Source: a phage. Taken from it: a stretch of DNA of 47,750 nucleotides. Numbering within the stretch: the first letter of the stretch is position 1; every line of letters begins with the position of its first letter. The stretch is from the sequence record PZ379542.1. One strand, 5' to 3'. The notes under the pieces were generated by a model, which was given only the letters and a program-made list of their open reading frames with translations, did not search any database and was not told the DNA's origin. Both the position numbers and the translations under genes were made by a program. This document shows, in pieces, positions 1,323-46,531 of the stretch.

Positions 1323-4300
1323 ATGGCACAAATGGTCAAAACAAATGCGGAGCTATGTGATATGGCGGAAGAAATTAAGATTTATGGAAGTAAGGGCGGA
1401 CAGCCAAAGCAGCACCAACCTGTAGAGCAGCCTGATAACCTGATATCCGTAAACAAGGTTAAGGTTTTGCTAGCTGTTTCTGATGGTGAGGTTGATAGCT
1501 CATTCTCCCTAAAGGACCTTTACCTTGCTGACGTTCCTGTACAGAACCAGAATGGCACATACAACTACGAGGGTGTAACGGCAGAGTTTCGCCCTGGCAC
1601 ACAGAGTCAGGATTACATTGCCGGGCTAGAGGGTGCTAACTCGGAAGTGCAAGTGAACAGGGAGATTAAAAACTCAACTCCTTACATCATTGCTGTTAAT
1701 AACACCCAGCTATCAGCGATTAGGGTTAAGCTGTTTTGGCCTCGTCTGATTAATCAGGAAAGTAACGGAGATCTTAACGGTACCACTTGCGAGTATGCGA
1801 TTGACCTGTCCGTTGATGGCGCTACATACACTGAGTACACGCGCGGAGTAGCTAATGGCAAGACAACTAGCGGGTACGACAGAAGTATCAGGGTTAACCT
1901 TCCTGCTGAGTTCTCGAGTGCGTTGGTGAGGGTTCGTAAGATCACGGCATATTCAGAAAGTTCGACGCTGGTTAACGACATGCAAATTACGACCTATCAG
2001 GAAGTAATTGATGCTAAATTCCGCTACCCACTTACAGCGCTGGTTTACGTTGAGTTCAGTTCTGACCTCTTCCCTAACGGAATCCCGACGATTTCAATCA
2101 AGAAGAAGTGGAAGTTGATTCGCGTTCCAACTAACTACAACCCAGAGACAAGGACTTACAGCGGAACCTGGAACGGCACCTTTAAGATGGCGTATTCCAA
2201 TAACCCGGCGTGGGTTCTTTACGACTTGGTGACGAATCAGCGTTACGGACTTGACCAGCGAGAGCTTGGCATTACTATTGATAAGTGGGGTCTGTATGAG
2301 GCGGCGCAATTCTGTGACCAGATGGTTCCAGATGGTAAGGGTGGAGTTGAGCCGCGCTACCTGTGTGATGTTGTCATTCAGCAGAAAGTTGAAGCATATC
2401 AGGTAATCCGTGATATTTGCTCTATCTTCCGTGGGCTGACATTCTATGACGGCGAGCAGATAGGTATTGTTGTCGATAAGCCGCGTCAACCATCGTACGT
2501 ATTCACCAATGACAACGTTGTTGATGGATTGTTCAACCGTACATTTGGTAGCGATAAGTCACTTTACACGGTTGCCAACGTTCAGTTTGATGACGTTGAA
2601 AACTCATACCAACAGGATGTTGAGCCAGTATTCGAGTTAGAGGCAACAAGGCGTTTTGGTTACAACCCGGTCGACCTTACAGCTATTGGATGTACTCGCA
2701 GGAGTGAGGCAAACCGCCGAGGGCGCTGGTTATTAAAGACGAACATTCGCAGCGAGACTATTAGTTTCACTACTGGTCTGGAAGGTATGATTCCAATGAT
2801 TGGTGAGGTTATTGCAGTTAATGACCAGGCATGGTCTAGCAACTACACCCTTAACCTTTCTGGTCGTATCGAGTCAGTAAGTGGGTTGCAAGTTTTTGTG
2901 CCATTTAAGATTGATGCTACTGCTGGCGACAGGATTCTAATAAACAAGCCTGATGGAATGCCAGAGTACAGGACCATTGCATCTGTATCTGAAGATGGTA
3001 TGACGCTGCAACTTAATACAGCGTTTAGCTTTACTCCTCAGCCTGACACAGTATTTGCGATTGATAAGGAAAATCTTGCTCTTCAGCAATATGTTGTGAC
3101 CGGGATTCAAAAAGCAGACAGCGATGGAGACGATGCGTTCGGTTACAGCATTACGGCAGTCGAGTACGACCCGAATAAATACGACGAAATTGATTACGGC
3201 GTAAACATTCAGGATAGGCCATCGTCAATCGTTGAACCTGACACGCTACTTGCCCCAGAAAATGTTCAGGTGAGCAGCTACAGCAAGGTTGTGCAGGGTT
3301 TATCAGTTGAGACAATGGTAATCACCTGGGACAAAGTTCAGTACGCCAAGACTTACACGGTACAGTGGCGTAAGGAGAACGGAAACTGGATTAACGTACC
3401 GCGCACAGCAAACACAGAAGTTGATATTGAAGGTATTTATGCTGGTATTTATCAGGTTCGCGTGAGGGCTGTTTCTGATACTGAAAACGTATCCGCATGG
3501 TCTGACATTGTTTCAGCAAGCCTAACTGGTAAAATTGGAACGCCGTCTGAGCCTACGGTAATCACAGCTTCAGATGATGAAATATTTGGCATTAGGGTTA
3601 AGTGGGGTTTCCCTGAAAACTCAGCCGATACGTCATACACTGAATTGCAGCAAGTAGCCGACAATGGTGATGGTACTTACTCACCAGAGAACGCCAGTTT
3701 GTTAACGCTAGTTCCTTACCCGGGTTACGAGTATTGGCACACTACATTACCGGCAGGAAAGGTTATCTGGTACAGGGCGCGACTGATTGACAAGATTGGT
3801 AACGTCTCACCATGGACTGATTTTGTAAGGGGTATGGCAAGCGATGATGTGTCGTCAATCATTGGTGATATTAAGGTTGATATAGAAAACTCAGATGGGT
3901 TCAAGTATCTCCAACAGAATGCCATTGAGTCAAACGGAGCTATTCAGGCGCAAGCGGAATCAATAATTGAGAACGCCCTGGCTAATGATGGTGACGTGCG
4001 TAGAATGACGAAGGAAAACGGCAAGAGGAAGGCCGAATTTGTTCAGGCTGTGAATCTTATCGCCGATGAAGAAAGGGCTCGCGTAGAGGCTCTGACGCAG
4101 CTTAAAGCGCAGATTGATGATGAGATTGTGGCTTCGTTGACAAGGATTGATACGGCGCTAGCGGAAGAAACGCAAGCAAGGACCACTGCGGACACTGCTT
4201 TATCTGCAAGGCTCGGTGAGAATGAAGCTGCTTTAAATGAGAAGCTGGATACTTACGTTACAGCTGATTCAATTGGTGCGCAGTACGGCATTAAGCTGGG

Positions 4301-4748
4301 TCTTACTTACAATGGGGTTGAGTACAATTCAGGGATGAGCATGGAACTAACCGGATCTGGTGGCAACGTTCGTAGTCAGTTCATTTTCGATGCTAACAGG
4401 TTCGCAATCAGTAACGGCATTAGCTCTGGATCCGGTCAGTGGTCATTGCCTTTCGTAGTTGAAGGTAATCAGGTATTCATTCAAAGCGCAGTGATTCAGG
4501 ATGGTTCAATCACTAACGCGAAGATTGGTAACCGGATTCAATCTAATAACTACGTGGCTGGTTCTCAGGGTTGGGCCATTGATAAGTCAGGCAGTGCGGA
4601 ACTTAACAATGCAACTGTAAGGGGTAGTCTGTACGCAAGTAACGGCAACTTTGCGTTTAACGGAACCAACAACACTGTTCAGATTAACAATAATGGAATT
4701 ACAGTTAATTTACCGAATGGTGGAAGGGTTGTAGTTGGAGTGTGGTAA
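1323..4748 (+). CDS. tail tip / host specificity protein J-like
   Basis: 1141 aa; YNPETRTYSGTWNGTFKMAYSNNPAWVLYDLVTNQRYG matches the conserved central block of lambda J as recalled from memory. Confidence 0.9.
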   Translation: MAQMVKTNAELCDMAEEIKIYGSKGGQPKQHQPVEQPDNLISVNKVKVLLAVSDGEVDSSFSLKDLYLADVPVQNQNGTYNYEGVTAEFRPGTQSQDYIAGLEGANSEVQVNREIKNSTPYIIAVNNTQLSAIRVKLFWPRLINQESNGDLNGTTCEYAIDLSVDGATYTEYTRGVANGKTTSGYDRSIRVNLPAEFSSALVRVRKITAYSESSTLVNDMQITTYQEVIDAKFRYPLTALVYVEFSSDLFPNGIPTISIKKKWKLIRVPTNYNPETRTYSGTWNGTFKMAYSNNPAWVLYDLVTNQRYGLDQRELGITIDKWGLYEAAQFCDQMVPDGKGGVEPRYLCDVVIQQKVEAYQVIRDICSIFRGLTFYDGEQIGIVVDKPRQPSYVFTNDNVVDGLFNRTFGSDKSLYTVANVQFDDVENSYQQDVEPVFELEATRRFGYNPVDLTAIGCTRRSEANRRGRWLLKTNIRSETISFTTGLEGMIPMIGEVIAVNDQAWSSNYTLNLSGRIESVSGLQVFVPFKIDATAGDRILINKPDGMPEYRTIASVSEDGMTLQLNTAFSFTPQPDTVFAIDKENLALQQYVVTGIQKADSDGDDAFGYSITAVEYDPNKYDEIDYGVNIQDRPSSIVEPDTLLAPENVQVSSYSKVVQGLSVETMVITWDKVQYAKTYTVQWRKENGNWINVPRTANTEVDIEGIYAGIYQVRVRAVSDTENVSAWSDIVSASLTGKIGTPSEPTVITASDDEIFGIRVKWGFPENSADTSYTELQQVADNGDGTYSPENASLLTLVPYPGYEYWHTTLPAGKVIWYRARLIDKIGNVSPWTDFVRGMASDDVSSIIGDIKVDIENSDGFKYLQQNAIESNGAIQAQAESIIENALANDGDVRRMTKENGKRKAEFVQAVNLIADEERARVEALTQLKAQIDDEIVASLTRIDTALAEETQARTTADTALSARLGENEAALNEKLDTYVTADSIGAQYGIKLGLTYNGVEYNSGMSMELTGSGGNVRSQFIFDANRFAISNGISSGSGQWSLPFVVEGNQVFIQSAVIQDGSITNAKIGNRIQSNNYVAGSQGWAIDKSGSAELNNATVRGSLYASNGNFAFNGTNNTVQINNNGITVNLPNGGRVVVGVW

Positions 4749-7480: not shown

Positions 7481-8452
7481 ATGACATTTAAAGTTTATAC
7501 GAACGACGAGCTAACCAATGAAGCCTATCACGAAGAGAAAGACCATATCTCTGGCTCTTCGCTGGCTGAGATTCTTGCTACTTCTCCAGCAAAATGGAAA
7601 TTTAAGCAGCGCAGCAACTCTAGCGCAGCACTTAAATTTGGCACACTAAGTCACTGCATGATGCTAGAGCGCGAGGTATTTGACTTAACATACATGCGAG
7701 CTACTGACTTTGACGAAGTGGAAGGATTGATTACTAGCCAAACGGCTTTATCCGCAGCGCTTAAAAAAGTTGGAGTTTCAGGCACGTCAGGTAAGGGATA
7801 TAGCGAGCTCGTGGAGATGATGTATAAATCTGGTGAGGATTGGCCTGTTAAATGGTTAATTGAGCAGCAGGAGAGCGCTGAGGCGTTAATTAGTGGCAAA
7901 GAGCTCGTTACTGCGAAAGATTACGATAAGGTAATCTCAATGCGCGAGGTTCTGACTAATATCCCAGCTTACGATGCGATTATTAACTCACCAACAGCAC
8001 AGAAAGAGCTATCAATCTTTGGTGAGATTCTTGGGTGTGGTGTTAAGGTTAGGCTTGATCACGTGGATGTTGTTGATGGCGTGGTTTTCATTACTGACTA
8101 CAAGACGACGGCGGACGCAAGCCCGAGAGGATTTGGCAAGTCAGCTTATGACCATGGATACCTGTGCAAAATGAGCCTTCAGCGTGACTTGTTCGTGAAG
8201 GCATTTAACGAGAAGCGTAAGGTTGTGGTTCGACTTCTGGCGCAGGAAAAAACGGAGCCTTACTTACCAATGAGCTACACGCTTACAGATGAACAGCTTC
8301 GCATTGGTCGTTTACAATATTGTGAGGCACTAGCAACATACAAACAGTGCAAGGAGCTTGATGTATGGCCTGGGTATAGCAATGGGATTACAGAGCAAGA
8401 TTTGATGATTCCTGAGTGGGTAAGTAAGCAGTATCAAGAACTTCTAAAATAG
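7481..8452 (+). CDS. PD-(D/E)xK family exonuclease (recombination exonuclease)
   Basis: VRLDHVDVVDGVVFITDYKT D...D/E-x-K signature; adjacent to ERF and SSB. Confidence 0.7.
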   Translation: MTFKVYTNDELTNEAYHEEKDHISGSSLAEILATSPAKWKFKQRSNSSAALKFGTLSHCMMLEREVFDLTYMRATDFDEVEGLITSQTALSAALKKVGVSGTSGKGYSELVEMMYKSGEDWPVKWLIEQQESAEALISGKELVTAKDYDKVISMREVLTNIPAYDAIINSPTAQKELSIFGEILGCGVKVRLDHVDVVDGVVFITDYKTTADASPRGFGKSAYDHGYLCKMSLQRDLFVKAFNEKRKVVVRLLAQEKTEPYLPMSYTLTDEQLRIGRLQYCEALATYKQCKELDVWPGYSNGITEQDLMIPEWVSKQYQELLK

Positions 8453-9658: not shown

Positions 9659-9681
9659 AGCCCCTTTCGGGGCTTTTTTTA
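9659..9681. terminator. bidirectional rho-independent terminator
   Basis: agcccc-tttc-ggggct hairpin with T-tract on both strands, between convergent SSB and tailspike genes. Confidence 0.75.
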
Positions 9682-12207
9682 TGCAAGAGAAACTCTTGAG
9701 TTTGCAAATATCAAGGCGTCCCTTTGATTATCAAATTCTACAACAAAATAATCAGCAAGGCTTAATACCATACCAGTTAATCCATTGAGGTTAATGTTAA
9801 GGTTTGCAACGCCAGAAACCGAAGCCTTACCAACGCCAAATGTATGAACCCACTTACCAGCTTCTGTGAATACAGTTCCTAATGATGCGCTACCAGAAAT
9901 GTTTATAATACCATCAGCACCGCCTTGAATCCTGTTTGCAGAAATACCCCAAGCATACCATTTGCCGGAAGTTATATTAAAGCTACCATTTATCAATTCG
10001 TACTGAGCCGCACCAGCCAATTCGTAGTATCCAGATGATTGCGAGTGTATACCCCTTGTATCAGAACCTTCACTTGACGACCCTGTTCCACCAAAGTTGT
10101 TCCCACCAGTACCAAAAGGCCTCCTTACTAAAACAGTTCCGGAATCAGGGTTAAAAACTCGACCTTTAGTAACATATCCTCTAACAGATAAGTCAGATGT
10201 ACCCGTTATCTTGGCTGTCTGTGATACCAGTGACTCAACTATAACGTTTGATGTTGAAGAGCCATTCAGGTATGCATCCTTAGCAAAAATAATACTGTTC
10301 GAATCAAGAGAGAAACTTTGGTGCCCATCAGCGTTATCAAACCTGCACCCATAAGTTACAAGGTTTGAATTTGATAACTCAATGTTATTAATATAAGAAT
10401 GCTCAGCAAAGAAAACGGACGTATCGATGAGCTTCAAAACCCTTGGGAGTTCAGCTCCCTCACCTACGTTAATTGCCCCACCAGTTGCTATCGCTTCAAA
10501 CCATACGTTAGACAATCCGCAAGGTGATGTTGGGCAATCTCCAGGTTTATTCTTTAACCTTATACCGCCGCCAGCAGAGGCCTCCATTATTGAATCCCTA
10601 ATCCACCACCCACCAATTCCTCCAGCGCCAGGGTTCGTTGCGCTACTTGTGCTTGTCGCATCTAGCATTACTGAATATTGAGAGATTGTATCTGAGTGGT
10701 ATCCGTATAAAGTGTCCGCTCCTATATGCATTTCGTCATGAGCTTTTGCTCGATACCCGTAATTCGCATTTCTAATACTTACGTTTCTGTAGGTATTTCC
10801 AATGTTGCCAGCATTTTTCCTTATACCAACATCCAGGTCATTGAAGTAAAGCCTATCCAATACAACCCTTCCAGCATAAGGGCCATCCGGGAATTGAAAG
10901 CCGTTATTACCTTGTATTGCAGTACCTGTAAACTGCAAATCCGATAAATGCTTTTGCCTCCAGTGCGGAACCGATAGCGTTGAGGTGAGTCCGGTTTCAA
11001 AAGGTTTAACACTTATTACGGTATTATATCCAGAGCCTGATATGTTCCTGCCAGCAAAGGAGTAGTTATTACTCTCATAAGTTCCCGGGCTTATAACTAC
11101 CGACCCGCCATCGCCAGCGGCTTCTATTGCTGAAGATATTGAGCCGCTATAGCTTGATGTGCTTTTTGAATCTGTATTTAAAATTGATGATAATTCGCTC
11201 TTTGAGTAAACATCAAGGTTGGTTCTTGCTTCTGCTTTATCTGCAACATCAGATAAATTCAATGATTTTTGAAAAGTCTCATTTTTTGAGTAAACATCAA
11301 GCAAGCCTCTTACTCGCTGGGCGCTAGCGTCGCCAACCTTACTTCCTGATGCGACATAAAGAGCCTCTCTTGAATAGTAAGTTTTGTTTGGTGCCGTGCC
11401 AGTCTGAGTTAAATCAATCAACCTGTACGTATTATCGGATCCGGTTGATGCTGACACTTGTATGTTCTTAACACCAGTAATCCCCCTTGATGACTTAACC
11501 TCAATCGCACAAAGCGTGCTATCGGAGTAGGTTATATTTATCACCTCTGGAGCGTTGATCATTGCTGACTTTTGGCATAGGTATCTAGCTCCTGATTTGA
11601 AATCAAACGTATTCCAGTCAAGTTCTGTCAACTGAGGTGTAAACGAGCCACCGATACCCATATTGGCAAGAGTTACCATTGTGCCAGCATCACCAGCACT
11701 ATTAATTGCCTCAATAGTAGCATCTCTCGCTGATGTGGTTGTATCCCTTGCGCTAACGGCAGTAGCGGCGCTCTCTGCGGCAGCAATCTGGCTAGCTAAA
11801 GACTCGGCAGCCCCTGTTACTGATTGGTTTGCTAATTGCTCGAAGCGAGGCCAATCGAAATTATCTTGCCCGATAAATTGCAGCAAACTTTCAATAGAAG
11901 TCTCCTTTGACTGATAGTAACGCAGAGTCTCAGCAACATCCTGAGCTAAACCCTGAACGGTAATGCCATCGTGAGCAAGAATCGCGTAACCAGTTCCGGC
12001 AGGAACAGTTTCAGAATTAGGGTTGTAAACATTAATCTGAGTGTCGCTGATGATTTCAGAGATGGTATAAATTTTAAGTGGACTGGTTTTAAAAATAATG
12101 GTTGCACCTACACGAATAAGTGTAAGTGGTGCTTTCCATGTTGTCCGGACGCCAGTAACCTCGCCATTTGCGGCTAGCGACGCTGTTCCTAAGTCATAAA
12201 TTGCCAT
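9679..12207 (-). CDS. tailspike / tail fibre protein with predicted beta-helix (pectate-lyase-like) domain
   Basis: 842 aa from ATG 12207 (GGAGA RBS); Gly/Ser/Asn/Thr-rich repetitive central region. Confidence 0.75.
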   Translation of the reverse strand: MAIYDLGTASLAANGEVTGVRTTWKAPLTLIRVGATIIFKTSPLKIYTISEIISDTQINVYNPNSETVPAGTGYAILAHDGITVQGLAQDVAETLRYYQSKETSIESLLQFIGQDNFDWPRFEQLANQSVTGAAESLASQIAAAESAATAVSARDTTTSARDATIEAINSAGDAGTMVTLANMGIGGSFTPQLTELDWNTFDFKSGARYLCQKSAMINAPEVINITYSDSTLCAIEVKSSRGITGVKNIQVSASTGSDNTYRLIDLTQTGTAPNKTYYSREALYVASGSKVGDASAQRVRGLLDVYSKNETFQKSLNLSDVADKAEARTNLDVYSKSELSSILNTDSKSTSSYSGSISSAIEAAGDGGSVVISPGTYESNNYSFAGRNISGSGYNTVISVKPFETGLTSTLSVPHWRQKHLSDLQFTGTAIQGNNGFQFPDGPYAGRVVLDRLYFNDLDVGIRKNAGNIGNTYRNVSIRNANYGYRAKAHDEMHIGADTLYGYHSDTISQYSVMLDATSTSSATNPGAGGIGGWWIRDSIMEASAGGGIRLKNKPGDCPTSPCGLSNVWFEAIATGGAINVGEGAELPRVLKLIDTSVFFAEHSYINNIELSNSNLVTYGCRFDNADGHQSFSLDSNSIIFAKDAYLNGSSTSNVIVESLVSQTAKITGTSDLSVRGYVTKGRVFNPDSGTVLVRRPFGTGGNNFGGTGSSSEGSDTRGIHSQSSGYYELAGAAQYELINGSFNITSGKWYAWGISANRIQGGADGIINISGSASLGTVFTEAGKWVHTFGVGKASVSGVANLNINLNGLTGMVLSLADYFVVEFDNQRDALIFANSRVSLA

Positions 12208-13245: not shown

Positions 13246-13291
13246 CACTATACACAATGTATAGCGCCACTGTTTATCAATTCGTGCTATT
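13246..13291 (-). promoter_or_regulatory. palindrome-containing promoter cassette (variant TTGATAAA)
   Basis: Minus-strand aaatagcacgaattgataaa; tgtgtatagt extended -10; upstream of primase. Confidence 0.6.
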
Positions 13292-13769
13292 TCCCTTGCT
13301 CTTTATCTTTTCGTGCTGCTTCGTTAGCGGCCTTAATCTTGCGCCATGAGCGACACTCTGGTTTAGTTGCTAGCTCAGCCTCAGTAACAACACGCAGCAT
13401 ATGACGCTTCTTGCAACGTAGAGTTAGCGGTTTCCCGTTACCGTCGAATTGCAGATCTGGTCGGCAGAATGTAGCGCGAAAACCTTCTCCATTTCGCTTA
13501 TAGTAGTTGTGCGACAACTGAGCGCCACGCGCAGAAATCATCCCGCGATCAAACCATTGCTCTACAGTCTGGTGAGATACATTTAACTGCTTGGCGATAT
13601 TGGCCTTCGTGCCGTAGAAATCAAGAACCATCTCCAGACGAGCTCGTAGCCCAGCCTTTACTTCATCTTTCAATACGTAGTAGCCTGACGGTCGTTTGCG
13701 CTGTTTCTTGTCTTGCGTGCGGATGGTTCCGTTATTGCCGTTGATAGTTCGCTTGTCAATTTCACACAT
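13287..13769 (-). CDS. HTH DNA-binding protein (candidate transcriptional regulator)
   Basis: Helix-turn-helix GTKANIAKQLNVSHQTVEQWFDRG; basic termini. Confidence 0.65.
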   Translation of the reverse strand: MCEIDKRTINGNNGTIRTQDKKQRKRPSGYYVLKDEVKAGLRARLEMVLDFYGTKANIAKQLNVSHQTVEQWFDRGMISARGAQLSHNYYKRNGEGFRATFCRPDLQFDGNGKPLTLRCKKRHMLRVVTEAELATKPECRSWRKIKAANEAARKDKEQGK

Positions 13770-22655: not shown

Positions 22656-24239
22656 TTACCCCAGCAGTCGCGGATTAATGTAAATTTTATCACCAATCAG
22701 GCACGTGTAGTTTTTCTCGTCAAGCATAGGAATTAAATGGTCCTTGATACGAGTCATTACACCCGCCTGAGCTTCAAAAGGTTTAACCTTGCGAGCAGCT
22801 TCATACAATGAGCGAACACCAACAACACCTTTCCCATTCTTACCCTGCTTAATCAGGATATCAACCAGCTTATTCATCTCGGCATTGTCACCAGCATGAC
22901 CAGCGGCACTAGCAGATGACAAATAAGTCTTGCTCAGTTCGTTAAAAATCATAACCGCTTCCTGCATCGTATCAAGTTCAATCTCTCTTGATTTCTTCGG
23001 ACTTGAACCATCTGGCGCGAACCAGTTACGAATAACGTGCAGGACAGAAGCTATACGTATTGCTTGCTTATCAAATTTACCCAGCGCACCGCGTAACATT
23101 GTGTGGGAGTACTTCCCGCCATCACCAAGATGCGGCTCCATCTCCTGACGTGATCGGTTAAGGTAACGCATTGATGATGCGCTTACTGTTAGCTTAACCT
23201 CTACTTCATTCATAATCTCATGAACAAGACGGAAATAGTCTGCTTTCAGGCCGCCATCAATAGCCTCATAGGTTGAATCACCATTTTCATCAACAAATAC
23301 ACGGTCGCCAAGAAATGATTTTTCACGCACCAGAAGGAAACGCTCAGATACACCAATACCACGCGCACCAGCATTCATAATGGCATTGATTGTTTCATCC
23401 TGAGCAATTACGGAGATGCATCCCATAGCCACAAAGCTCATGTTATTTTCTGCGTTCGCACGGGCAATTGACACATTACCTGCATCCCATGCTTTCAGCA
23501 CGAGCTCGCTGTTCGTTTTCTTAGAGCCATCACCATATGTCATACCCAACAATGAGTTGACGCTAGTTGCCTCATCAGATATTACCGCAAAGTTACCCTG
23601 GCGGTTGTTGATTCGCGCAAGGCCTTCAGGTGTGGTATCGGAGACTGGAAATACGATATCGCATAGTTTCTCAAGTTTTTCCTCTAAATCCTCTTTTTCC
23701 TCAAATAGTGAAGCCATTTCAGAAGGTGATTTCTCCTGCTTCATCTCTTTAGCCAGAGCGGACAGTTTAGCCATAATCTTTTTTCGATCACGTTTACGTA
23801 CTTCATTCAACCGCTCAGTCTCAGCAATCATCGGCGCAATTGATAGCGAGTTAATGGCTGATTTACCAGTTGAAGGCGGCTGACTTGTTACCACGTACAA
23901 AGATGTTGGCTGTTGGGTTCCATGATACTCGACAGTAAAACGCCCAAGCATTGCAGCAGAAACACAACCAAGAAAGTGCATGTAAGCTGACGACTCAGGG
24001 AACTGAACCGAGCGAGCGATATTAGCCGATAGCTTACCAACAACATCAATATCATTACCGAGTGAGATTACTGGATACTTATCATTACCTGTATCAATCT
24101 CGACAGGTGCTTTCCAGAACGATTGAGACTGTCGATAGCCATTGGCATTAATAGCCACGCGAAGCGGTGGTAGGTTGTCATTGGCAGCGATTGCCATAAC
24201 TTGCTCAACAGATAGTTTATCTTCATTGAAATAAAACAT
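22656..24239 (-). CDS. putative replication-associated P-loop protein (function uncertain)
   Basis: Large ORF; ATG 24239 with GGAGAG RBS; P-loop-like SQPPSTGKSAIN; promoter cassette upstream. Confidence 0.6.
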   Translation of the reverse strand: MFYFNEDKLSVEQVMAIAANDNLPPLRVAINANGYRQSQSFWKAPVEIDTGNDKYPVISLGNDIDVVGKLSANIARSVQFPESSAYMHFLGCVSAAMLGRFTVEYHGTQQPTSLYVVTSQPPSTGKSAINSLSIAPMIAETERLNEVRKRDRKKIMAKLSALAKEMKQEKSPSEMASLFEEKEDLEEKLEKLCDIVFPVSDTTPEGLARINNRQGNFAVISDEATSVNSLLGMTYGDGSKKTNSELVLKAWDAGNVSIARANAENNMSFVAMGCISVIAQDETINAIMNAGARGIGVSERFLLVREKSFLGDRVFVDENGDSTYEAIDGGLKADYFRLVHEIMNEVEVKLTVSASSMRYLNRSRQEMEPHLGDGGKYSHTMLRGALGKFDKQAIRIASVLHVIRNWFAPDGSSPKKSREIELDTMQEAVMIFNELSKTYLSSASAAGHAGDNAEMNKLVDILIKQGKNGKGVVGVRSLYEAARKVKPFEAQAGVMTRIKDHLIPMLDEKNYTCLIGDKIYINPRLLG

Positions 24240-24268
24240 TACTTCTCTCCGCATTGTTTCTGAGCGGC

Positions 24269-28568: not shown

Positions 28569-28748
28569 ATGCGTTTTAGACAATCAGCCGCCAAGCTCCA
28601 GGCTAACAACTTCGATGGTTACACAACATTTATCATCGCCCAGGCTTTCGGTTTGCATGATGAACCTAAGGTTCATACTATCCACTTAAATGAAGAGCAA
28701 GCTCGAGAACTGGCTTTCGAGATTCTTGATCAATTGAATAAAATTTAA
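28569..28748 (+). CDS. hypothetical protein
   Basis: ATG 28569 with AGGAA RBS (track start 28563 is TTG). Confidence 0.5.
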   Translation: MRFRQSAAKLQANNFDGYTTFIIAQAFGLHDEPKVHTIHLNEEQARELAFEILDQLNKI

Positions 28749-28758
28749 GGTTTATAAA

Positions 28759-29181
28759 ATGAAATTAAGCAAATCTCAAAGGGAAGAGTTGAAGGGCAAG
28801 TTCGGTGGTCGCTGCGCTTATTGTGGGTGTGAACTACCTGAGAAAGGCTGGCATGCTGACCATGTTGAACCGGTGCTACGTAAATCTGAGGTATGCATGA
28901 AGGCAGCGGAGAAAGGAACTTTCAAGCTGAAGGCGACAGGTGAGTTTAATCGACCACAAGCTGATCGAATGGAAAACCTTTACCCTGCATGTGCTCCATG
29001 CAACCTCATGAAAACTTGCTATTCCCTTGAAATGTTCAGGGAACAGGTGTCTCTTCAAGTAGCTCGCGGGCGTAAGAGCAGCATGAATTTTCGCACGGCA
29101 GAGCGGTTCGGCCTCATCTCCATAGTGGAGGATCCAGTTGTTTTCTGGTTTGAGAAGTTTGAGCAAATTAACAAAATCTGA
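28759..29181 (+). CDS. HNH endonuclease
   Basis: CAYCG...HADHVEP...NLYPACAPCN HNH zinc-finger motifs. Confidence 0.8.
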   Translation: MKLSKSQREELKGKFGGRCAYCGCELPEKGWHADHVEPVLRKSEVCMKAAEKGTFKLKATGEFNRPQADRMENLYPACAPCNLMKTCYSLEMFREQVSLQVARGRKSSMNFRTAERFGLISIVEDPVVFWFEKFEQINKI

Positions 29182-29191
29182 GGATAGAGAA

Positions 29192-29326
29192 ATGCATACT
29201 GGGTTAATGATGGGTGAATTTCTGGTTGAAGCATTGCCATGGTTACTCTGGTCATTGGGCTTCATGATTATTTACATGATTTCAGCAGCCGTAGATGACG
29301 CTAAAAGCGATTCTAACGAACTATAA
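29192..29326 (+). CDS. hypothetical small membrane protein (44 aa)
   Basis: AGGATAGAGAA RBS; hydrophobic LPWLLWSLGFMIIYMI. Confidence 0.4.
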   Translation: MHTGLMMGEFLVEALPWLLWSLGFMIIYMISAAVDDAKSDSNEL

Positions 29327-30179: not shown

Positions 30180-30386
30180 ATGGGAATAGCCTTTATGAGT
30201 GATAACGACAATAATCACAAACATCATTACATTTACGTGTTCACATCAATCATTAACGATTTTGACATTAAGGCGATAAGCTATGCATACCACGAGTCAA
30301 CAAAACCAAGTGTATCAATAGGTGAAACATGTGCGTTCTACGAGTGCAAAGATTGTGGCAAGATGCTTATAACTGAGGAGTTTTGA
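30180..30386 (+). CDS. hypothetical protein
   Basis: ORF starting inside second repeat copy. Confidence 0.5.
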   Translation: MGIAFMSDNDNNHKHHYIYVFTSIINDFDIKAISYAYHESTKPSVSIGETCAFYECKDCGKMLITEEF

Positions 30387-30583
30387 TGAATAAAATTATT
30401 AAGAAAGGCGATGCTATCAAGTGCACAAAGGCGGCATCGGATGACTTCATGGATGGATGCGATTACCAGGTCGAAAAGGTATCGAAGACTGGCCACGTAT
30501 TCTGCTACAGCGATAATGGCGAATTGGTGAGCATTGACTACCCGTATGACCAGAATTATGGGAAATTCGAAAGAGTAAGTTGA
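30383..30583 (+). CDS. hypothetical protein
   Basis: ATGA-coupled ORF. Confidence 0.5.
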   Translation: MMNKIIKKGDAIKCTKAASDDFMDGCDYQVEKVSKTGHVFCYSDNGELVSIDYPYDQNYGKFERVS

Positions 30584-30771
30584 CACATCTAACCCTGACT
30601 GGTACATTAACAACTGTAGACAGACGAGGCCACCAAGTGGCAACGGCGCACGGAGCGCAACACAAAGTCCATAGCTCACTAAGCAGCGTATATGGCGAAA
30701 TCGGTCGAGAAACTCGACGCTGGAAGCGTAACCAGCAATCCTTCAATAGCGCAATCGCTACTCAAGGATTT

Positions 30772-30847
30772 GTTCTGCTGGCGTAACAGGATAACGCAAA
30801 GACCTCCTAAGTCTTAGTTACTGGTTCGAGTCCAGTGCGGAACACCA
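30772..30847 (+). tRNA. tRNA-Arg (anticodon CCU)
   Basis: Hand-folded cloverleaf: acceptor gttctgc/gcggaac (one G-U), D-stem gcgt/acgc with GG in loop, anticodon stem aagac/gtctt with loop ctCCTaa, T-arm actgg-ttcgagt-ccagt, discriminator A, encoded CCA. Confidence 0.75.
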
Positions 30848-30878
30848 AATTAAGAAACCAATAATCCTGGGGGATTAA

Positions 30879-31091
30879 ATGAAAAAAGTAACAATCATCG
30901 TAAAAGATATTGAAAGCGGCACTTCCCAAAAATTCAACGCAACACTTGACCGTGAACATAAATGCTTAAAGGGTGTGATTGGCGGGGTTTCAGTTAGCGC
31001 GGATATTAAATGTTATCTCGAGCTTGAAAGAGAAACTCAAAACTATAGCAATCAGAGCGGGAAGATAAAAAATGCAGCTCTGGGATGTTAA
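30879..31091 (+). CDS. hypothetical protein
   Basis: ORF with GGGGGA RBS. Confidence 0.5.
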   Translation: MKKVTIIVKDIESGTSQKFNATLDREHKCLKGVIGGVSVSADIKCYLELERETQNYSNQSGKIKNAALGC

Positions 31092-31260
31092 GCTTTCAAT
31101 CCGATTAATGGGTCGTAGTTGCAAAAGTTGCACTCAAGAATTTATCGCGTCGGTTACTGCTAAGTCCTCAGAGGAAGCAGTAGCGAAAGTTAAGGTAATG
31201 TCTGGTGCCGACCCGGATTACCACAAATTCCTAGTAGCTTACGTTCGTGAGCGAAAGTAA
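31072..31260 (+). CDS. hypothetical protein
   Basis: Overlapping ORF. Confidence 0.45.
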   Translation: MQLWDVKLSIRLMGRSCKSCTQEFIASVTAKSSEEAVAKVKVMSGADPDYHKFLVAYVRERK

Positions 31261-31312: not shown

Positions 31313-31337
31313 CGCCCTCTTCTTGAGGGCTTTTTTT
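31313..31337 (+). terminator. rho-independent terminator
   Basis: gccctc-ttcttg-agggc hairpin + T7. Confidence 0.75.
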
Positions 31338-31348
31338 CGTTTGCTATA

Positions 31349-31384: not shown

Positions 31385-31909
31385 ATGAAAGACGAAAACT
31401 TCACCAGTCAGGCGCAAGAAAAGGTCCGCTCTGGCAACTTTAAAGCCATGTACAATAAAAAGTACTCAGACATTACAACGCTAGCCAAAAACCGAAGCAT
31501 GACACCCGAACAGCTATTTGAATTCGCCGTGAAATACTTCTCATGGGCTGAGGACCAGGCAATCAAGGCAATCGAGACAGCCAGCTTCCAGGGTGTGGTA
31601 AAAGAGAGCCTGGTGCACAAACCACGAGTCTTCACGCTAACCGGATTCTGCCTTTACTGCGGTGTCACCCATAGCGCTATCGAGAAATGGAGGAAGTCGG
31701 CTGGTTATGATGAGGTGATTGCGTTCATTGATTCCGTGATTCGCGAGCAGAAATACCAGCTTGCAGCATCTGGCATCATTAACCCTGGCATGATTTCCAA
31801 AGAGCTTGGAATCGACAAGCCGCAGGAGATTACCATCAGCAACAACTCTTCAGCTAACGACGTCGATACGATGAAGGAAGCGCTGGAGTCTGTGATTAGC
31901 AAACTGTAA
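31385..31909 (+). CDS. terminase small subunit (candidate)
   Basis: 174-aa ORF with AAAGGAGG RBS directly upstream of terminase large subunit. Confidence 0.55.
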   Translation: MKDENFTSQAQEKVRSGNFKAMYNKKYSDITTLAKNRSMTPEQLFEFAVKYFSWAEDQAIKAIETASFQGVVKESLVHKPRVFTLTGFCLYCGVTHSAIEKWRKSAGYDEVIAFIDSVIREQKYQLAASGIINPGMISKELGIDKPQEITISNNSSANDVDTMKEALESVISKL

Positions 31910-37857: not shown

Positions 37858-38799
37858 ATGGCCATTAAATTTGATGCAGAACAAGCAAAAATCACCTCTC
37901 ACCTTGAGCAAATGGGCGTAGATAAAGCTGATGCCGCTGGTATCTGGACCGTTAGCCAGCTTACCGCTGCTCTGAATCGCGCTTACGAAAAAGAATACGC
38001 AGAAAACTCAGTTGTTAATATCTTCCCGGTAACTAATGAAATTCCTGGTCACGCGAAGTATTTCGAATATCCAGAGTTTGATGGTGTTGGTATTGCTCAG
38101 ATTATCGCTGATTACTCTGATGACTTGCCGCTGGTTGATGCTTTCATGACCGAGAAACAAGGTAAAGTGTTCCGTTTCGGTAACGCATTCCTGATTTCTA
38201 CTGACGAAATCAAGGCTGGCGCTGCTACTGGTCAATCACTGTCAACTCGCAAACAGGCATTAGCTTTCGAAGCGCACGACAACCTGCTTGATAAACTGGT
38301 TTGGTCTGGCTCCACCCCGCACGGTATCCCTAGCGTATTCGACCATCCTAACATCAACAACGTTGTTGCTGGTACGTGGAACTCCGCAGCTGCCGCCATG
38401 ACTGATATCACCGCACTTATTGATGCGATCGAGACTTCGACCAATGGCACTCACACCGCAACTGATATCTTGCTGCCCGCTTCCGCTCGCCGCCTGATGC
38501 AAGAGCTGGTTCCTAACACCTCTATCAGTTACGCGCAGTTGTTTGCTACCAACAACTCGGGCATCAATCTGCGTTATCTGCAGTTCCTGGATAACTACGA
38601 TGGCGCAGGTGGCAAAGCTGCTCTGGCGTTTGAGAAGGATCCACTCAATATGAGTATTGAGATTCCAGAGGTTACTAACGTGCTTCCAGCTCAACCTAAA
38701 GACCTGCATTTCCGCTATCCTGTAACATCAAAAGCGACGGGATTGATTGTTTATCGCCCTCTGACGATGGCTGTAATCAAAGGCATCACCTTCGCGTAA
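37858..38799 (+). CDS. major capsid protein (lambda E-like)
   Basis: 313 aa; strong AAAGGAATAAACAAGA RBS region; own promoter and terminator. Confidence 0.8.
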   Translation: MAIKFDAEQAKITSHLEQMGVDKADAAGIWTVSQLTAALNRAYEKEYAENSVVNIFPVTNEIPGHAKYFEYPEFDGVGIAQIIADYSDDLPLVDAFMTEKQGKVFRFGNAFLISTDEIKAGAATGQSLSTRKQALAFEAHDNLLDKLVWSGSTPHGIPSVFDHPNINNVVAGTWNSAAAAMTDITALIDAIETSTNGTHTATDILLPASARRLMQELVPNTSISYAQLFATNNSGINLRYLQFLDNYDGAGGKAALAFEKDPLNMSIEIPEVTNVLPAQPKDLHFRYPVTSKATGLIVYRPLTMAVIKGITFA

Positions 38800-43558: not shown

Positions 43559-46531
43559 ATGGCAACTAACGAAATTGCTGGTATCACGCTAGCCGTCGAC
43601 GTCGCTCAGGTCGATAAGGGTACACAATCATTACAGAAATTCAGGCAAGCAAACGAGCAAGCTGCAACAGGCATTAATAGCTTCGTCAACGCCGAACTTG
43701 TAGCCAAGACTCAAGCAAGGGACACCGCAAGGCAGCTTGAGGAGCAGCGCAAATCTTTCGCATCACTTCAACAAGTCATAGACCCAACTGCCGCTAAATT
43801 CCAGAAGCTTCAGAAAGCAGCAACTGAATTAGACAAGGCGTTTGAATCTGGAATAGTTCCTGATGATGAGTTCTTCCGGCTTGGCTCTGTTATTGAAACT
43901 CAAATAAATAAGCTAAACAGGTCTAAAGCAGCTCTTAGCGAGGAAGGGCGAGCTGCACTACAGGCATCAATAGATAAAGAAAAGGCAACAGCAGCCGCGC
44001 AAAAGTTCATTCAATCTCTTGAGAACGAGGCGAATGCAGCAAGCCTTACAAGGACTGAACTACTTCAACTTAAGGCTGCTCAACTCGGAGTTAGTGACCA
44101 AGCGGCACCGATTATCGACAGGATTGGCAAGGCCGCCGAGGCATCTGCTGTTCAGTTACAGAAGCAAAGCTCCGCTTTTGTTAAGTCAGGTTTAAGCGCC
44201 GGTCAGTACAAGCAAGCAATACGACAGCTACCAGCTCAGATTACAGATATCGGAACATCTCTTGCTGGCGGCATCCCAATCTGGCTCATTGCAATTCAGC
44301 AGGGTGGGCAGATTAAGGATAGCTTTGGTGGTATTGCTAACACCGCAAGGTTCGCACTGGCAGCCATTAACCCATTAACGGCAGTTGTTGGGACTTTGGG
44401 CTTGGCCCTCGGCGCTCTTGGTGTTGCTGCTTATCAGGCTGACAAGAACACTCGCGGACTAGCATCAACGATAACATTGGTTGGCAACTCAACTATCACG
44501 TCGACAGCGCAGATAAATCAGGTTGTTGATGGAATTGAGAGTTCAACACTAGCCACGCGCGGACTTATCCAGGAGATAGCTAACAGCCTGGTAGCAAACG
44601 GTAATCTGACTCTTACGCAGATAGATAAGATAACCAAGGCGACAGCACAATGGGCAACTGTAACATCAACAGACTCGAAAACTATTCTTGGATACTTTGA
44701 TCAGATTACAAAGGACCCAATTCAAGGTCTGATTGCACTCGATAAGCAGTTCAACTTCCTTCAGTCTGGGCAATTGAAATACATTGAGAATATCAGGAAG
44801 ACGGCTGGAGAAACAGAGGCTGTAACCGCAGCTACTGAGCTATTCGCTAACGTTATGGAAAACAGGCTAGCAGACGTAGCACTAAGCCTTAACCCTCTTG
44901 AGAGCGCATGGAATAGCTTCAGGAAGTTTGTAAGTGAGATTTGGGATGATATAAGCAAAAGGACGCTTGGGGCGCTTAACTTAATAACTGACGTTGTTGC
45001 TGGGACTATTGAGCAGATAAGGTCGTTAATAAACTCCGGCGATATCCTATTGGGCGAGTTTGCAATAGCAGCAACCAAGACACTTCAGTCAATACCTGGA
45101 CTTGGCGATTTAGGCAATGAAGCAATCGCTGAGCAGCAAAAGATTGTTGATGCAGCTAAGAAGCAAAATGAGGAGTTAGCAAAAAGCATAGCTGAGCGAG
45201 ATGCGAGAATCAGGAAGGGTGAGCTTGGTTATGTCGAGAACAACAATAACACCAACCTTAGCGGCAATAATGCATCAACCGATAAGGAGTTTGCAGCAAG
45301 GAAGAAGGCTCTTGCCGATGAGTATGATGCGATAAAGAAAGCAAGGAGTGAGAGGAAAAAGGCTGTAAAAGAAGAAAGGGATTTAACTTTATCTTATGAA
45401 TCTGGCGTTCTTGCACTTCAGGCTCAGTTAAAGGTCTTACAAGAGCACAGAACGATAAATGATGTAATAAGCAATGAAAGAAAGCAGTTATTCCAGGAAG
45501 AAGCGAAGTTTGCAATACTTGAACAAAGACAAGCGGATGGTACGCTTACAAAATCACAGGCTAAGCTACTTGCGCAGAAGAATATCATTCTTGAACAGGC
45601 TAAACAGAAGGCTGAACTTGGTGACCAGATTGTGCTTCAGGAGAGGTCAAACAAGTTACTTGATGACAACCTTAAGAAGACTGTGCAGATTACAAATGAA
45701 GCAAATAATTTTTCACTTGCTGCTAATTTATCTGACAGGGAGAAGCAAAGAGCAAAAGAGCTTCAGGCACTTCAATCCAATCAGGTAAACAAAGGTGGTT
45801 CTGTAGATGATACTGATTTTCAGGCATTACTAGAAGCCAGGCGTAATTTCTATGCTCAAGAGGATGCGCTACGTGAAAACTGGCTTGCTGGTGTGCAATC
45901 ATCCTTCGCTAATTGGGCAGAGAGCGCGACAGATGCATTCTCTATCGCTGGTGAATTGACCACTTCCGTCTTTACCGGAATTACCGAGCAGATCACCAGC
46001 CTTGTAACAACTGGCACGGCAGACTTCAGGAGTTTTACCGTTGAGATCCTGAAACAGATTGCCAGGATTGCGACTCAACTCTTAATTGTTAAGGCCATTG
46101 AGTCAAGTCTGAGTAGTTTTGGTGGTACTGGCGGCGCTATTGGTTCAATTGGTAGTGCGCTTGGTTTTGCTGGCGGAGGTTATACTGGTGATGGCGGGAA
46201 ATATCAACCTGCTGGGACTGTTCACCGTGGTGAGTTTGTATTCACAAAAGAGGCTACAAGCAGGATTGGTGTTAAGAATCTGTACAAGCTGATGCGCGGT
46301 TATGCAAATGGAGGTGCTGTTGGTGGGCCATCTGGTTATGCTAATGGTGGGGTTGTCGGCGGTACTAATGTCAGTGTTGGTGGTGTGACGGTTAACGTAA
46401 ACTCTGGAATCGGTGGCGGAAATGATGCTAAGGCGATAGAATCTGGAGTTAAGGTTATCGTGGCTGAGGAAATCAGCAAATCATTCCAACAGGGTGGCAG
46501 AGCGTATCAGTTCTTGCGCGGTTACAACTAA
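43559..46531 (+). CDS. tape measure protein
   Basis: 990 aa, Ala/Gln-rich coiled-coil, Gly-rich C-terminus; ATG 43559 with GGAGG RBS. Confidence 0.85.
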   Translation: MATNEIAGITLAVDVAQVDKGTQSLQKFRQANEQAATGINSFVNAELVAKTQARDTARQLEEQRKSFASLQQVIDPTAAKFQKLQKAATELDKAFESGIVPDDEFFRLGSVIETQINKLNRSKAALSEEGRAALQASIDKEKATAAAQKFIQSLENEANAASLTRTELLQLKAAQLGVSDQAAPIIDRIGKAAEASAVQLQKQSSAFVKSGLSAGQYKQAIRQLPAQITDIGTSLAGGIPIWLIAIQQGGQIKDSFGGIANTARFALAAINPLTAVVGTLGLALGALGVAAYQADKNTRGLASTITLVGNSTITSTAQINQVVDGIESSTLATRGLIQEIANSLVANGNLTLTQIDKITKATAQWATVTSTDSKTILGYFDQITKDPIQGLIALDKQFNFLQSGQLKYIENIRKTAGETEAVTAATELFANVMENRLADVALSLNPLESAWNSFRKFVSEIWDDISKRTLGALNLITDVVAGTIEQIRSLINSGDILLGEFAIAATKTLQSIPGLGDLGNEAIAEQQKIVDAAKKQNEELAKSIAERDARIRKGELGYVENNNNTNLSGNNASTDKEFAARKKALADEYDAIKKARSERKKAVKEERDLTLSYESGVLALQAQLKVLQEHRTINDVISNERKQLFQEEAKFAILEQRQADGTLTKSQAKLLAQKNIILEQAKQKAELGDQIVLQERSNKLLDDNLKKTVQITNEANNFSLAANLSDREKQRAKELQALQSNQVNKGGSVDDTDFQALLEARRNFYAQEDALRENWLAGVQSSFANWAESATDAFSIAGELTTSVFTGITEQITSLVTTGTADFRSFTVEILKQIARIATQLLIVKAIESSLSSFGGTGGAIGSIGSALGFAGGGYTGDGGKYQPAGTVHRGEFVFTKEATSRIGVKNLYKLMRGYANGGAVGGPSGYANGGVVGGTNVSVGGVTVNVNSGIGGGNDAKAIESGVKVIVAEEISKSFQQGGRAYQFLRGYN

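Follow-up and report, generated by a model that had tools for sequence, protein, structure and literature searches.

Phage T4 carries a cluster of eight transfer RNA (tRNA) genes, including one for tRNA-Arg(UCU), which is co-transcribed with the stable RNAs species 1 and 2 (rnaC/rnaD). In T1-like phages, '1 arginyl-tRNA' has been reported as a feature (PMC4070988), and help with the rare AGA codon has been proposed for a phage tRNA-Arg (PMC7718038). The subject here is a tRNA-Arg gene with anticodon CCU, and the structured leader directly upstream of it, in a 47,750-nucleotide (nt) stretch of phage DNA (PZ379542.1, hereafter the window), the near-complete genome of a Braunvirinae (Drexlerviridae, T1/Rtp-like) coliphage. 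At the tRNA locus, its identity is 100% with phage ES and 98.6% with AN_ECEAS. Because an arginyl-tRNA has been published as a hallmark of T1-like phages, the gene itself is already known for this family: the CCU type is found in Rogue1, AKS96/AHP24/AHS24 and TR1-TR3, the UCU type in SU57, CEB_EC3a, JeanPiccard/JulesPiccard, the vB_EcoS-12210 group and MSK/OzMSK, and the gene is annotated at the same position in TR1-3, Rogue1, AKS96, SU57, EC3a, JeanPiccard/JulesPiccard, OzMSK and the 12210 group. These phages share with the window the order small open reading frame (ORF) block, leader, tRNA, small CxxC protein and terminase small subunit gene (terS), and the tRNA of the window, 96% identical to that of Rogue1 and nearly identical to that of TR3, does not differ from theirs in any substantive way. 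As in T4, a virulent coliphage would be making an Arg tRNA for a rare codon out of a precursor in which structured non-tRNA RNA is also present; the differences are that T4 has eight tRNAs rather than one and that the structured RNA here also occurs without any tRNA, and no sequence relationship is expected. What this locus adds is the co-evolution of tRNA allele and codon usage, and the leader, which is the only part that might repay experiments.

An earlier annotation of the window made from its letters alone (the sequence-only reading) had described a 76-nt cloverleaf with canonical stems, GG in the D loop, CTCCTAA, TTCGAGT and an encoded CCA at 30772-30847, and each of these statements is correct. 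Its assignment of the gene to tRNA-Arg(CCU) is also upheld. ARAGORN places a tRNA-Arg(cct) at precisely this position and finds no other tRNA in the 47.75-kb window, while Rfam RF00005 matches over the full length of the model (1-71); the score of 58.9 bits exceeds the gathering threshold of 29 (E = 2.7e-10). The acceptor stem halves are GTTCTGC and GCGGAAC; the D loop, AACAGGATA, includes G18 and G19, and gives A at position 20 (AACAGGAUA). With the anticodon loop CTCCTAA and the T loop TTCGAGT, all of the universal tRNA nucleotides are found: U8, A14, G18G19, U33, A37 (purine 37), the GTTCGAG T loop and CCA. Evolutionary evidence comes from an alignment of 13 syntenic phage homologs, in which 99.2% of the cells of the cloverleaf are paired, as opposed to 28-55% when the partners are slid. 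Double, compensatory changes affect 10 of the 21 pairs and are spread over all four stems, and none of 500 shuffles is as good. This covariation rules out that the tRNA is a pseudogene.

Arginine identity in Escherichia coli, as recognised by arginyl-tRNA synthetase (ArgRS), is set by A20, C35, U36/G36 and A/G73. The phage tRNA has A20, C35, U36 and A73, the first three of which are invariant across the compared phage and host Arg tRNAs, so the host ArgRS should recognise it. In the host argW tRNA, the anticodon loop (CU-CCU-AA), A20 and A73 are the same, whereas overall identity is 63% and the acceptor, D and anticodon stems differ. The feature is very probably a functional phage-encoded tRNA-Arg that supplies decoding of AGG.

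Codons were counted in ATG-initiated ORFs of at least 100 amino acids (aa), found with a uniform caller and chosen greedily without overlap, with one 50-kb sample of K-12 treated in the same way as the host reference. The AGG count that the sequence-only reading had proposed turned out strongly positive. With 162 occurrences (13.8 per 1000 codons, 28.5% of Arg), AGG is the commonest Arg codon of the phage, and relative to its frequency of 0.8/1000 in the host sample it is enriched 16-fold, the highest ranking of all codons, followed by ATA (4.9-fold) and AGA (4.8-fold). It is most frequent in the late/structural genes (17.1/1000, or 36.6% of Arg, compared with 9.6/1000 in the remaining genes), and constitutes 42-56% of the Arg codons in the genes for the tape measure (43559-46531), the J-like tip (1323-4748) and the tail fibre (9679-12207). 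Codon usage is strongly uneven within this one small genome. Two other ORFs largely lack these codons: that at 13287-13769 has no AGG and no AGA (0 of 17 Arg codons), and that at 22656-24254 has no AGG and two AGA among 29 Arg codons. This phage, like its relatives, hence carries its own decoder for a codon barely read by its host, and although the tRNA itself is routine, this is relevant both to predicting growth on different hosts and to the heterologous expression of AGG-rich tail genes.

Two homologous alleles, CCU and UCU, occupy a single syntenic tRNA slot in many Drexlerviridae. The CCU allele, with A73, is present in the window, AN_ECEAS and TR3, and in Rogue1 and AKS96 of the subfamily Rogunavirinae; the UCU allele, with G73, is present in Rtp, OzMSK/Msk, EC3a, DTL, SU57, the two Piccard phages, the 12210 group and SCS31/IME542. 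Usage of AGG and AGA sorts ten genomes by allele into three non-overlapping groups: four CCU phages (AGG 12.4-13.8/1000, AGA 7.3-8.7/1000), four UCU phages (AGG 7.6-9.0/1000, AGA 10.6-12.1/1000) and two phages without the tRNA, T1 and TH21 (AGG 5.2-6.3/1000, AGA 6.3-7.9/1000). The same direction is seen site by site. At conserved Arg positions of orthologous genes, sites with AGG in the CCU phage and AGA in the UCU phage outnumber those with the reverse by 27:5 for the window and Rtp, 35:7 for the window and JeanPiccard, and 34:6 for TR3 and Msk (p = 1e-4 to 8e-6 over the three pairs), and AGG in the window lies opposite CGN in T1 at 33 such sites, compared with 3 for the reverse. Both signs of a codon-compensating tRNA are therefore found: the cognate codon is enriched, especially in late genes, and its usage covaries with the presence and anticodon of the tRNA. 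Close phages holding the same cassette with either CCU or UCU, and with AGG/AGA usage shifted to match, represent a natural experiment. They are clean evidence, down to single sites, that one phage tRNA and the codon choice of a whole genome are linked, either of the two shaping the other. This allele split and its coupling to codon usage were not found described in the literature searched.

With regard to the origin of the alleles, the T arm and the 3' half of the acceptor are common to both, and the CCU allele is 77-80% identical to the phage UCU allele compared with 63% to host argW. Because it groups with the phage UCU allele and not with argW, the CCU tRNA seems to have arisen inside the phage lineage by a switch of anticodon, and not by capture of argW. 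Recent capture from a host was rejected on the absence of any blastn match of the tRNA in 5,426 E. coli genomes and the argW identity of just 63%. The UCU tRNA of Rtp/JeanPiccard, by comparison with E. coli argU, is identical at 38 of 40 positions over the D and anticodon arms and shares G73, while the acceptor and T stems are unrelated; it looks either chimeric or convergently constrained by the modification and charging enzymes of the host.

The best-supported mechanism for the tRNA is supplementation of AGG decoding, because of the codon demand, the identity set and an anticodon loop that is the same as that of argW. Host RNA polymerase would transcribe the gene from the sigma70-type promoter upstream (Table 1), giving a precursor predicted to comprise the structured leader of approximately 156 nt, the tRNA and the messenger RNA (mRNA) for two small proteins. 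RNase P, together with 3' processing, would free the tRNA, which host ArgRS would then charge. The tRNA should thereby raise the capacity of the cell for AGG, near-unused by E. coli and the top Arg codon of the phage, above all in the tape measure, J-like tip and tail fibre genes, and each phage's usage of AGG and AGA would have co-evolved with its CCU or UCU allele.

Several points weigh against this account. Regarding fold energy, which the sequence-only reading had set against shuffled controls, the result is marginal: the minimum free energy (MFE) structure of 30772-30847 is the exact cloverleaf (-21.8 kcal/mol), but z is only -1.60 and 13 of 200 shuffles fold equally well. As the MFE z-score is a weak and uninformative test for tRNAs, the covariance-model score and covariation, which are the appropriate tests, were used in its place. 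The major capsid ORF (37858-38799), presumably the most expressed late gene, contains neither AGG nor AGA (0 of 8 Arg codons), which suggests that the supply of AGG decoding stays limiting. Even with no tRNA-Arg, T1 and TH21 have an AGG frequency 6-8 times that of the host sample, and hence the tRNA is helpful rather than indispensable. The genome comparison contains few independent lineages, CCU being known from two subfamilies, and cause may run either way, the tRNA permitting codon drift or codon bias selecting the tRNA. Expression, processing, charging and effects on phenotype are functional steps inferred from the sequence.

Among the other explanations for the tRNA, the one that survives best is that it acts against host defence, replacing a host tRNA-Arg lost to a nuclease (colicin D-like, retron, PARIS or Schlafen-type) with a copy whose divergent body escapes cleavage. 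Phage tRNAs are known to act in this manner for other isoacceptors (PMC10264068), the tRNA-Lys of T5 is cited as countering PARIS, and retron Eco2 cleaves host tRNA-Arg among others. The body of the phage tRNA, as noted above, is divergent from argW and has no near-copy in the E. coli genomes searched. Because relatives carry a polynucleotide kinase and a T4 Stp-like gene, tRNA warfare would seem to be part of Drexlerviridae biology; these genes lie at 1444-1983 and 2432-2524 in Rtp (L087) and at 28715-29263 in TR3 (L090), and rtp6 of Rtp is annotated as an activator of host PrrC, like T4 Stp, an element of the tRNA cleavage and repair arms race. However, the anticodon loops equal those of the host, both in the CCU type (CUCCUAA, as in argW) and in the UCU type (CUUCUAA, as in argU), so the signature escape mutation is missing and the altered anticodon loop that marks a nuclease-evading tRNA (van den Berg et al. 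2023, PMC10264068) is not found. Nor would this explanation predict the allele-specific coupling of anticodon to AGG and AGA; the isoacceptor concerned is the rarest, which fits supply rather than replacement; and in the BASEL screen of the Eco2 paper, Eco2 gave no defence against the Drexlerviridae representatives. This lowers but does not eliminate the explanation, since a nuclease may recognise elements outside the loop, and PMC10264068 gives no nuclease determinants specific to tRNA-Arg; it is considered unlikely.

The stretch upstream of the tRNA was described in the sequence-only reading as non-coding-looking, with a perfect hairpin, gtcgag-aaa-ctcgac, and as perhaps containing a second, degenerate structured RNA. 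The hairpin is real (30704-30718, H4 in Table 1). The 188 nt upstream, which are conserved along with the tRNA in the Braunvirinae, can be taken as non-coding, because 1- and 4-nt indels, which would break a reading frame, and whole-hairpin modules differ among close relatives. Their fold is better than that of most shuffles (z = -2.65; 3 of 200 as good), and the compensatory changes described below establish a structured RNA, although not a degenerate tRNA. The promoter from which it would be made has 10 of 12 consensus positions and an extended -10 TG, and is the sole match of this quality between the small-ORF block and the terminase genes, further 10/12 promoter-like matches occurring within the structural module. 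Every relative compared has a promoter at this site, despite a 7-nt rearrangement, with the versions TTGCAT-17-TAATAT in the Rtp type and TTGACC or TTGACG in T1, TH21 and Phc. The transcript would start at about G30616, with a family-wide motif (GUAGACARACGAGG) followed by the hairpins H1-H6.

Table 1. Features of the tRNA-Arg(CCU) locus, leader and adjoining genes in the window; the leader RNA and its hairpins are predicted.
Feature	Position	Strand	Description
sigma70-type promoter	30580-30608	+	TTGACA 30580-30585, 17-nt spacer, TACATT 30603-30608, extended -10 TG 30600-30601
leader RNA	30616-30771	+	~156 nt, non-coding; opens with motif GUAGACAGACGAGG (30616-30629), then H1-H6
H1	30625-30645	+	stem 30629-30633/30637-30641 (GCCAC CAA GUGGC), extended by CG/CG 30625-26/30644-45
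H2	30646-30658	+	GCGC ACGGA GCGC; RNAalifold prediction
H3	30667-30696	+	bipartite; 30669-30676 pairs with 30685-30688 and 30692-30696
H4	30704-30718	+	GUCGAG AAA CUCGAC
H5	30719-30736	+	GCUGG AAGCGUAA CCAGC; 5-bp stem stacked straight on H4; loop A-N-N-C-G-U-A-A
H6	30737-30770	+	AAUCCUU..UAGCG CAAU CGCUA..AAGGAUU; abuts the 5' end of the tRNA; MFE fold
tRNA-Arg(CCU)	30772-30847	+	76 nt; anticodon CCT 30806-30808; encoded CCA 30845-30847; discriminator A73; A20 in D loop
small ORF	30879-31091	+	70 aa; first gene past the tRNA; phrog_16862 (function unknown), E=1.7e-8; preceded by GGGGGA ribosome-binding sequence
small CxxC protein	31072-31260	+	62 aa; phrog_2919 (function unknown), E=5e-28; kept 3' of the leader family-wide
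intrinsic terminator	31314-31340	+	GCCCTC TTCTT GAGGGC + T7; between the small genes and terS
terminase small subunit (terS)	31385-31909	+	phrog_606, E=1.3e-57; Pfam GP3_package; opens the packaging/structural module

The pairing of the 5' block of the leader is complete in 98.5% of cells, compared with 13-46% when slid, and none of 500 shuffles reaches its covariation score. In H1, four of the five stem pairs show double changes (GCCAC/GUGGC, CCAUC/GAUGG and CUAGC/GCUAG, with GCGC/GCGC in T1 and Phc), and H3, paired in 96-100% of cells, has an A-U to G-C double change and a U-A/U-G/C-G series. H2 is invariant in the Braunvirinae, so covariation is silent either way; T1 has a different hairpin at this site (GUGAGA CGAU UCUCAC). 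H4 has double changes in four of six pairs (GUCG/CGAC versus GCUG/CAGC) and is located syntenically in the outgroups by a covariance model, which was used to align H4-H5 in these because the MAFFT alignment was distorted. Within the Braunvirinae alone, 94.5% of the H4-H5 cells pair and double changes fall in 6 of 11 pairs; with the outgroups these values are 94.7% and 8 of 11, and in both cases 0 of 500 shuffles are as good, the sequences being related to one another and alignment A5 having been fitted to the covariance model. H6 occurs only in the window/TR3 and SCS31/IME542 lineages, with inner stems that differ in TR3, SCS31 and IME542, and is absent from the Rtp type. Approximately 29 G.U cells are found in the leader on the + strand only, where the other strand would show A.C mismatches, which fits an RNA made from the upstream promoter. 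The leader hence has the general marks of a structured non-coding RNA, in that it covaries beyond controls, is strand-specific and is non-coding. Apart from the tRNA, 30380-30900 has no Rfam 15 match at E<=10 that rises above noise (E>3), and the whole window has none at gathering thresholds.

H5 differs from the other hairpins in joining a conserved loop to a freely varying stem, which suggests that it is a candidate binding site for a protein or other factor. The stem is GCUGG, CCCGG, GGGGG (Phc), GCCGC (T1), CCCGC (Rogue1) or CCGG (TH21), while the loop is conserved as ANNCGUAA, all variants ending in (C/G)GUAA. A genome-wide search by regular expression, which itself misses the window's GCGTAA variant, gives one convincing copy of this hairpin per genome; a multi-copy nut-like site was rejected, as the remaining matches are weak stems inside genes. 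Elsewhere in the leader, A or G at 30620 (the fifth base of GUAG[A/G]C) covaries perfectly with the outermost H1 pair, 30629/30641, in 13 sequences, A accompanying G-C and G accompanying C-G (column 9 versus columns 18/30 of alignment A3). This could be a tertiary contact, or just the shared ancestry of two clades. The H4-H5 module is present as a tandem duplicate at the JulesPiccard locus (L008 751-794 and 821-863; 67 and 46 bits with model R1), and extra hairpin modules are inserted in other relatives (GAGG..CCUC; GACCUAGCGCAAAUAGGC). The leader is thus modular and an insertion hotspot.

The leader recurs across the Drexlerviridae and is more widespread than the tRNA. In T1, about 14 T1-type IMG/VR contigs, TH21 and Phc, the promoter, 5' motif and terminal hairpins are all present without a tRNA. 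These searches of IMG/VR used the pattern AACGGCGCRCGKAGCG, which returned 72 stretches with 7 true homologs, mostly GenBank isolates; the pattern CGTAGACARACGAGG, which returned 40 stretches of which about 14 were true, all T1-type and tRNA-less; and terS, which returned 3 loci. In the tRNA-less phages, CAUUCAAAG is followed without a gap by GGAG/GAGG, which is the ribosome-binding site for the next small gene, whereas in Rtp-type phages the tRNA begins immediately after CAUUCAAAG. Because the tRNA of the Rtp type starts just after the very motif that elsewhere precedes the ribosome-binding site, it looks as though an older 5' leader, common to the whole family, had received the cassette as an insertion at the junction of its last hairpin with the ribosome-binding site.

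The leader is an element separate from the tRNA, and probably a cis-acting or protein-binding regulatory RNA. No described leader, small RNA or antitermination element of T1-like phages was found in the literature searched, and it appears to be undescribed. HK022 put and lambda nut boxB are promoter-proximal antitermination RNAs. By analogy, the leader lies just 3' of a promoter, ahead of an operon broken by at least seven co-oriented terminators, and H5 resembles boxB in its 5-bp stem, whose sequence is free to vary, and in its conserved loop. Unlike put and nut, however, it is single copy rather than two, has 5-6 hairpins rather than two and an 8-nt loop, and resembles no Rfam family, either in sequence or by covariance model. 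A tRNA, and with it an RNase P site that would sever a put-like tether, is tolerated between the leader and the operon, and this, the single copy and the promoter-like sites inside the late module were counted against put-like tethering. The leader would suit either an RNA acting on read-through from close to the promoter or a docking platform for a regulatory protein, and in the tRNA-bearing phages RNase P might just as well free it as a stand-alone stable RNA. Each of these roles is put forward with low confidence. The tentative proposal, given a little less than an even chance, is that the leader is an undescribed regulatory RNA found throughout the Drexlerviridae, bound by a factor of phage or host and controlling the packaging/late operon, for instance through terminator read-through, into which the tRNA cassette was inserted later, driving the drift in AGG and AGA. 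In either event, the conserved promoter and leader offer a concrete, mutable element in the essentially uncharacterised control of T1-like late genes.

It might instead be supposed that the hairpins act as DNA, as a pac site, a replication origin or a single-strand initiation site. The leader is about 600 bp upstream of terS, and single-stranded DNA could form hairpins too, with G.T pairs tolerated in them. Yet the conserved promoter stands directly upstream and is oriented with the tRNA and genes, the G.U cells are specific to one strand, and compensatory changes in stems are not shown by double-stranded DNA sites. A pac site in particular was rejected on the terminal repeat of T1, which is annotated at 1-2800, with the leader at 7624 and so approximately 7.6 kb away, if packaging starts there. 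A role at the level of DNA is consequently a decidedly poor prospect beside that of a regulatory RNA. Still more improbable is that the cloverleaf is kept mainly as punctuation, a signal for RNase P and RNase Z or E to cut the leader off the mRNA, with decoding secondary. The position of the cassette, exactly between the last hairpin and the ribosome-binding site, and the junction at CAUUCAAAG, which meets that site in the tRNA-less phages and the tRNA start in the Rtp type, are as this would require; but punctuation would neither keep the anticodon loop, A20, C35 and the discriminator nor yield covariation between anticodon and codon usage, and T1-type phages manage without the tRNA. That 30584-30771 is a second, degenerate tRNA or its remnant has next to no likelihood, for although the stretch is non-coding, hairpin-rich and adjoins the tRNA, and EC3a has a second unusual tRNA (albeit downstream of tRNA-Arg), neither ARAGORN nor the permissive Rfam scan (E<=10) finds a tRNA or other family there, it forms a row of 5-6 independent hairpins with no cloverleaf, and the same element occurs in the T1-type phages, TH21 and Phc, all of which lack the tRNA.

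The sequence-only reading placed the gene in a small-gene early region. It does close a block of small + strand ORFs, but its position is better given as the border with the terminase/structural module, with terS beginning about 540 nt further downstream, and it appears to lie inside the 5' untranslated leader of the packaging/structural transcription unit. The CxxC protein encoded downstream has no Pfam match, and homologous ORFs come after the leader in TR3, DTL, SU57, TH21, Phc and locus L092. A counterpart of the terminator that follows is annotated in the T1 and EC3a records. At least seven strong intrinsic terminators are co-oriented (+) in the window, at 31314, 34041, 37724, 38806, 39142, 41961 and 46914. 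Such same-direction terminators separate the packaging and structural genes, with a like pattern annotated in the T1 and AKS96 records, a sign that read-through or attenuation is programmed into the late operon.

There are practical consequences for annotation, as neither the closest GenBank records nor those of Rtp and DTL list the tRNA, and spurious ORFs are annotated over the leader. The tRNA-Arg is unannotated in ES (OR466728), AN_ECEAS (PP944860), Rtp (NC_007603) and DTL (NC_047893); a tRNA is said to be lacking in Rtp and DTL (PMC8421802), contrary to which ARAGORN finds tRNA-Arg in both. Rogue1_0013 (40 aa; JQ182736, L014/L088 3249-3371) overlies the conserved hairpins of the leader and is probably a spurious call. 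In phage CEB_EC3a (NC_047812; L006 753-851), the second tRNA, also unannotated, directly follows tRNA-Arg(UCU), with a similar sequence at about 1900-2010 of L091. It is missed by ARAGORN, scores 41.3 bits with Rfam, and has a long variable arm and the anticodon loop CUUAUAC, giving the anticodon UAU, which reads AUA; in the window, ATA ranks second among all codons for phage enrichment (12.2 versus 2.4/1000).

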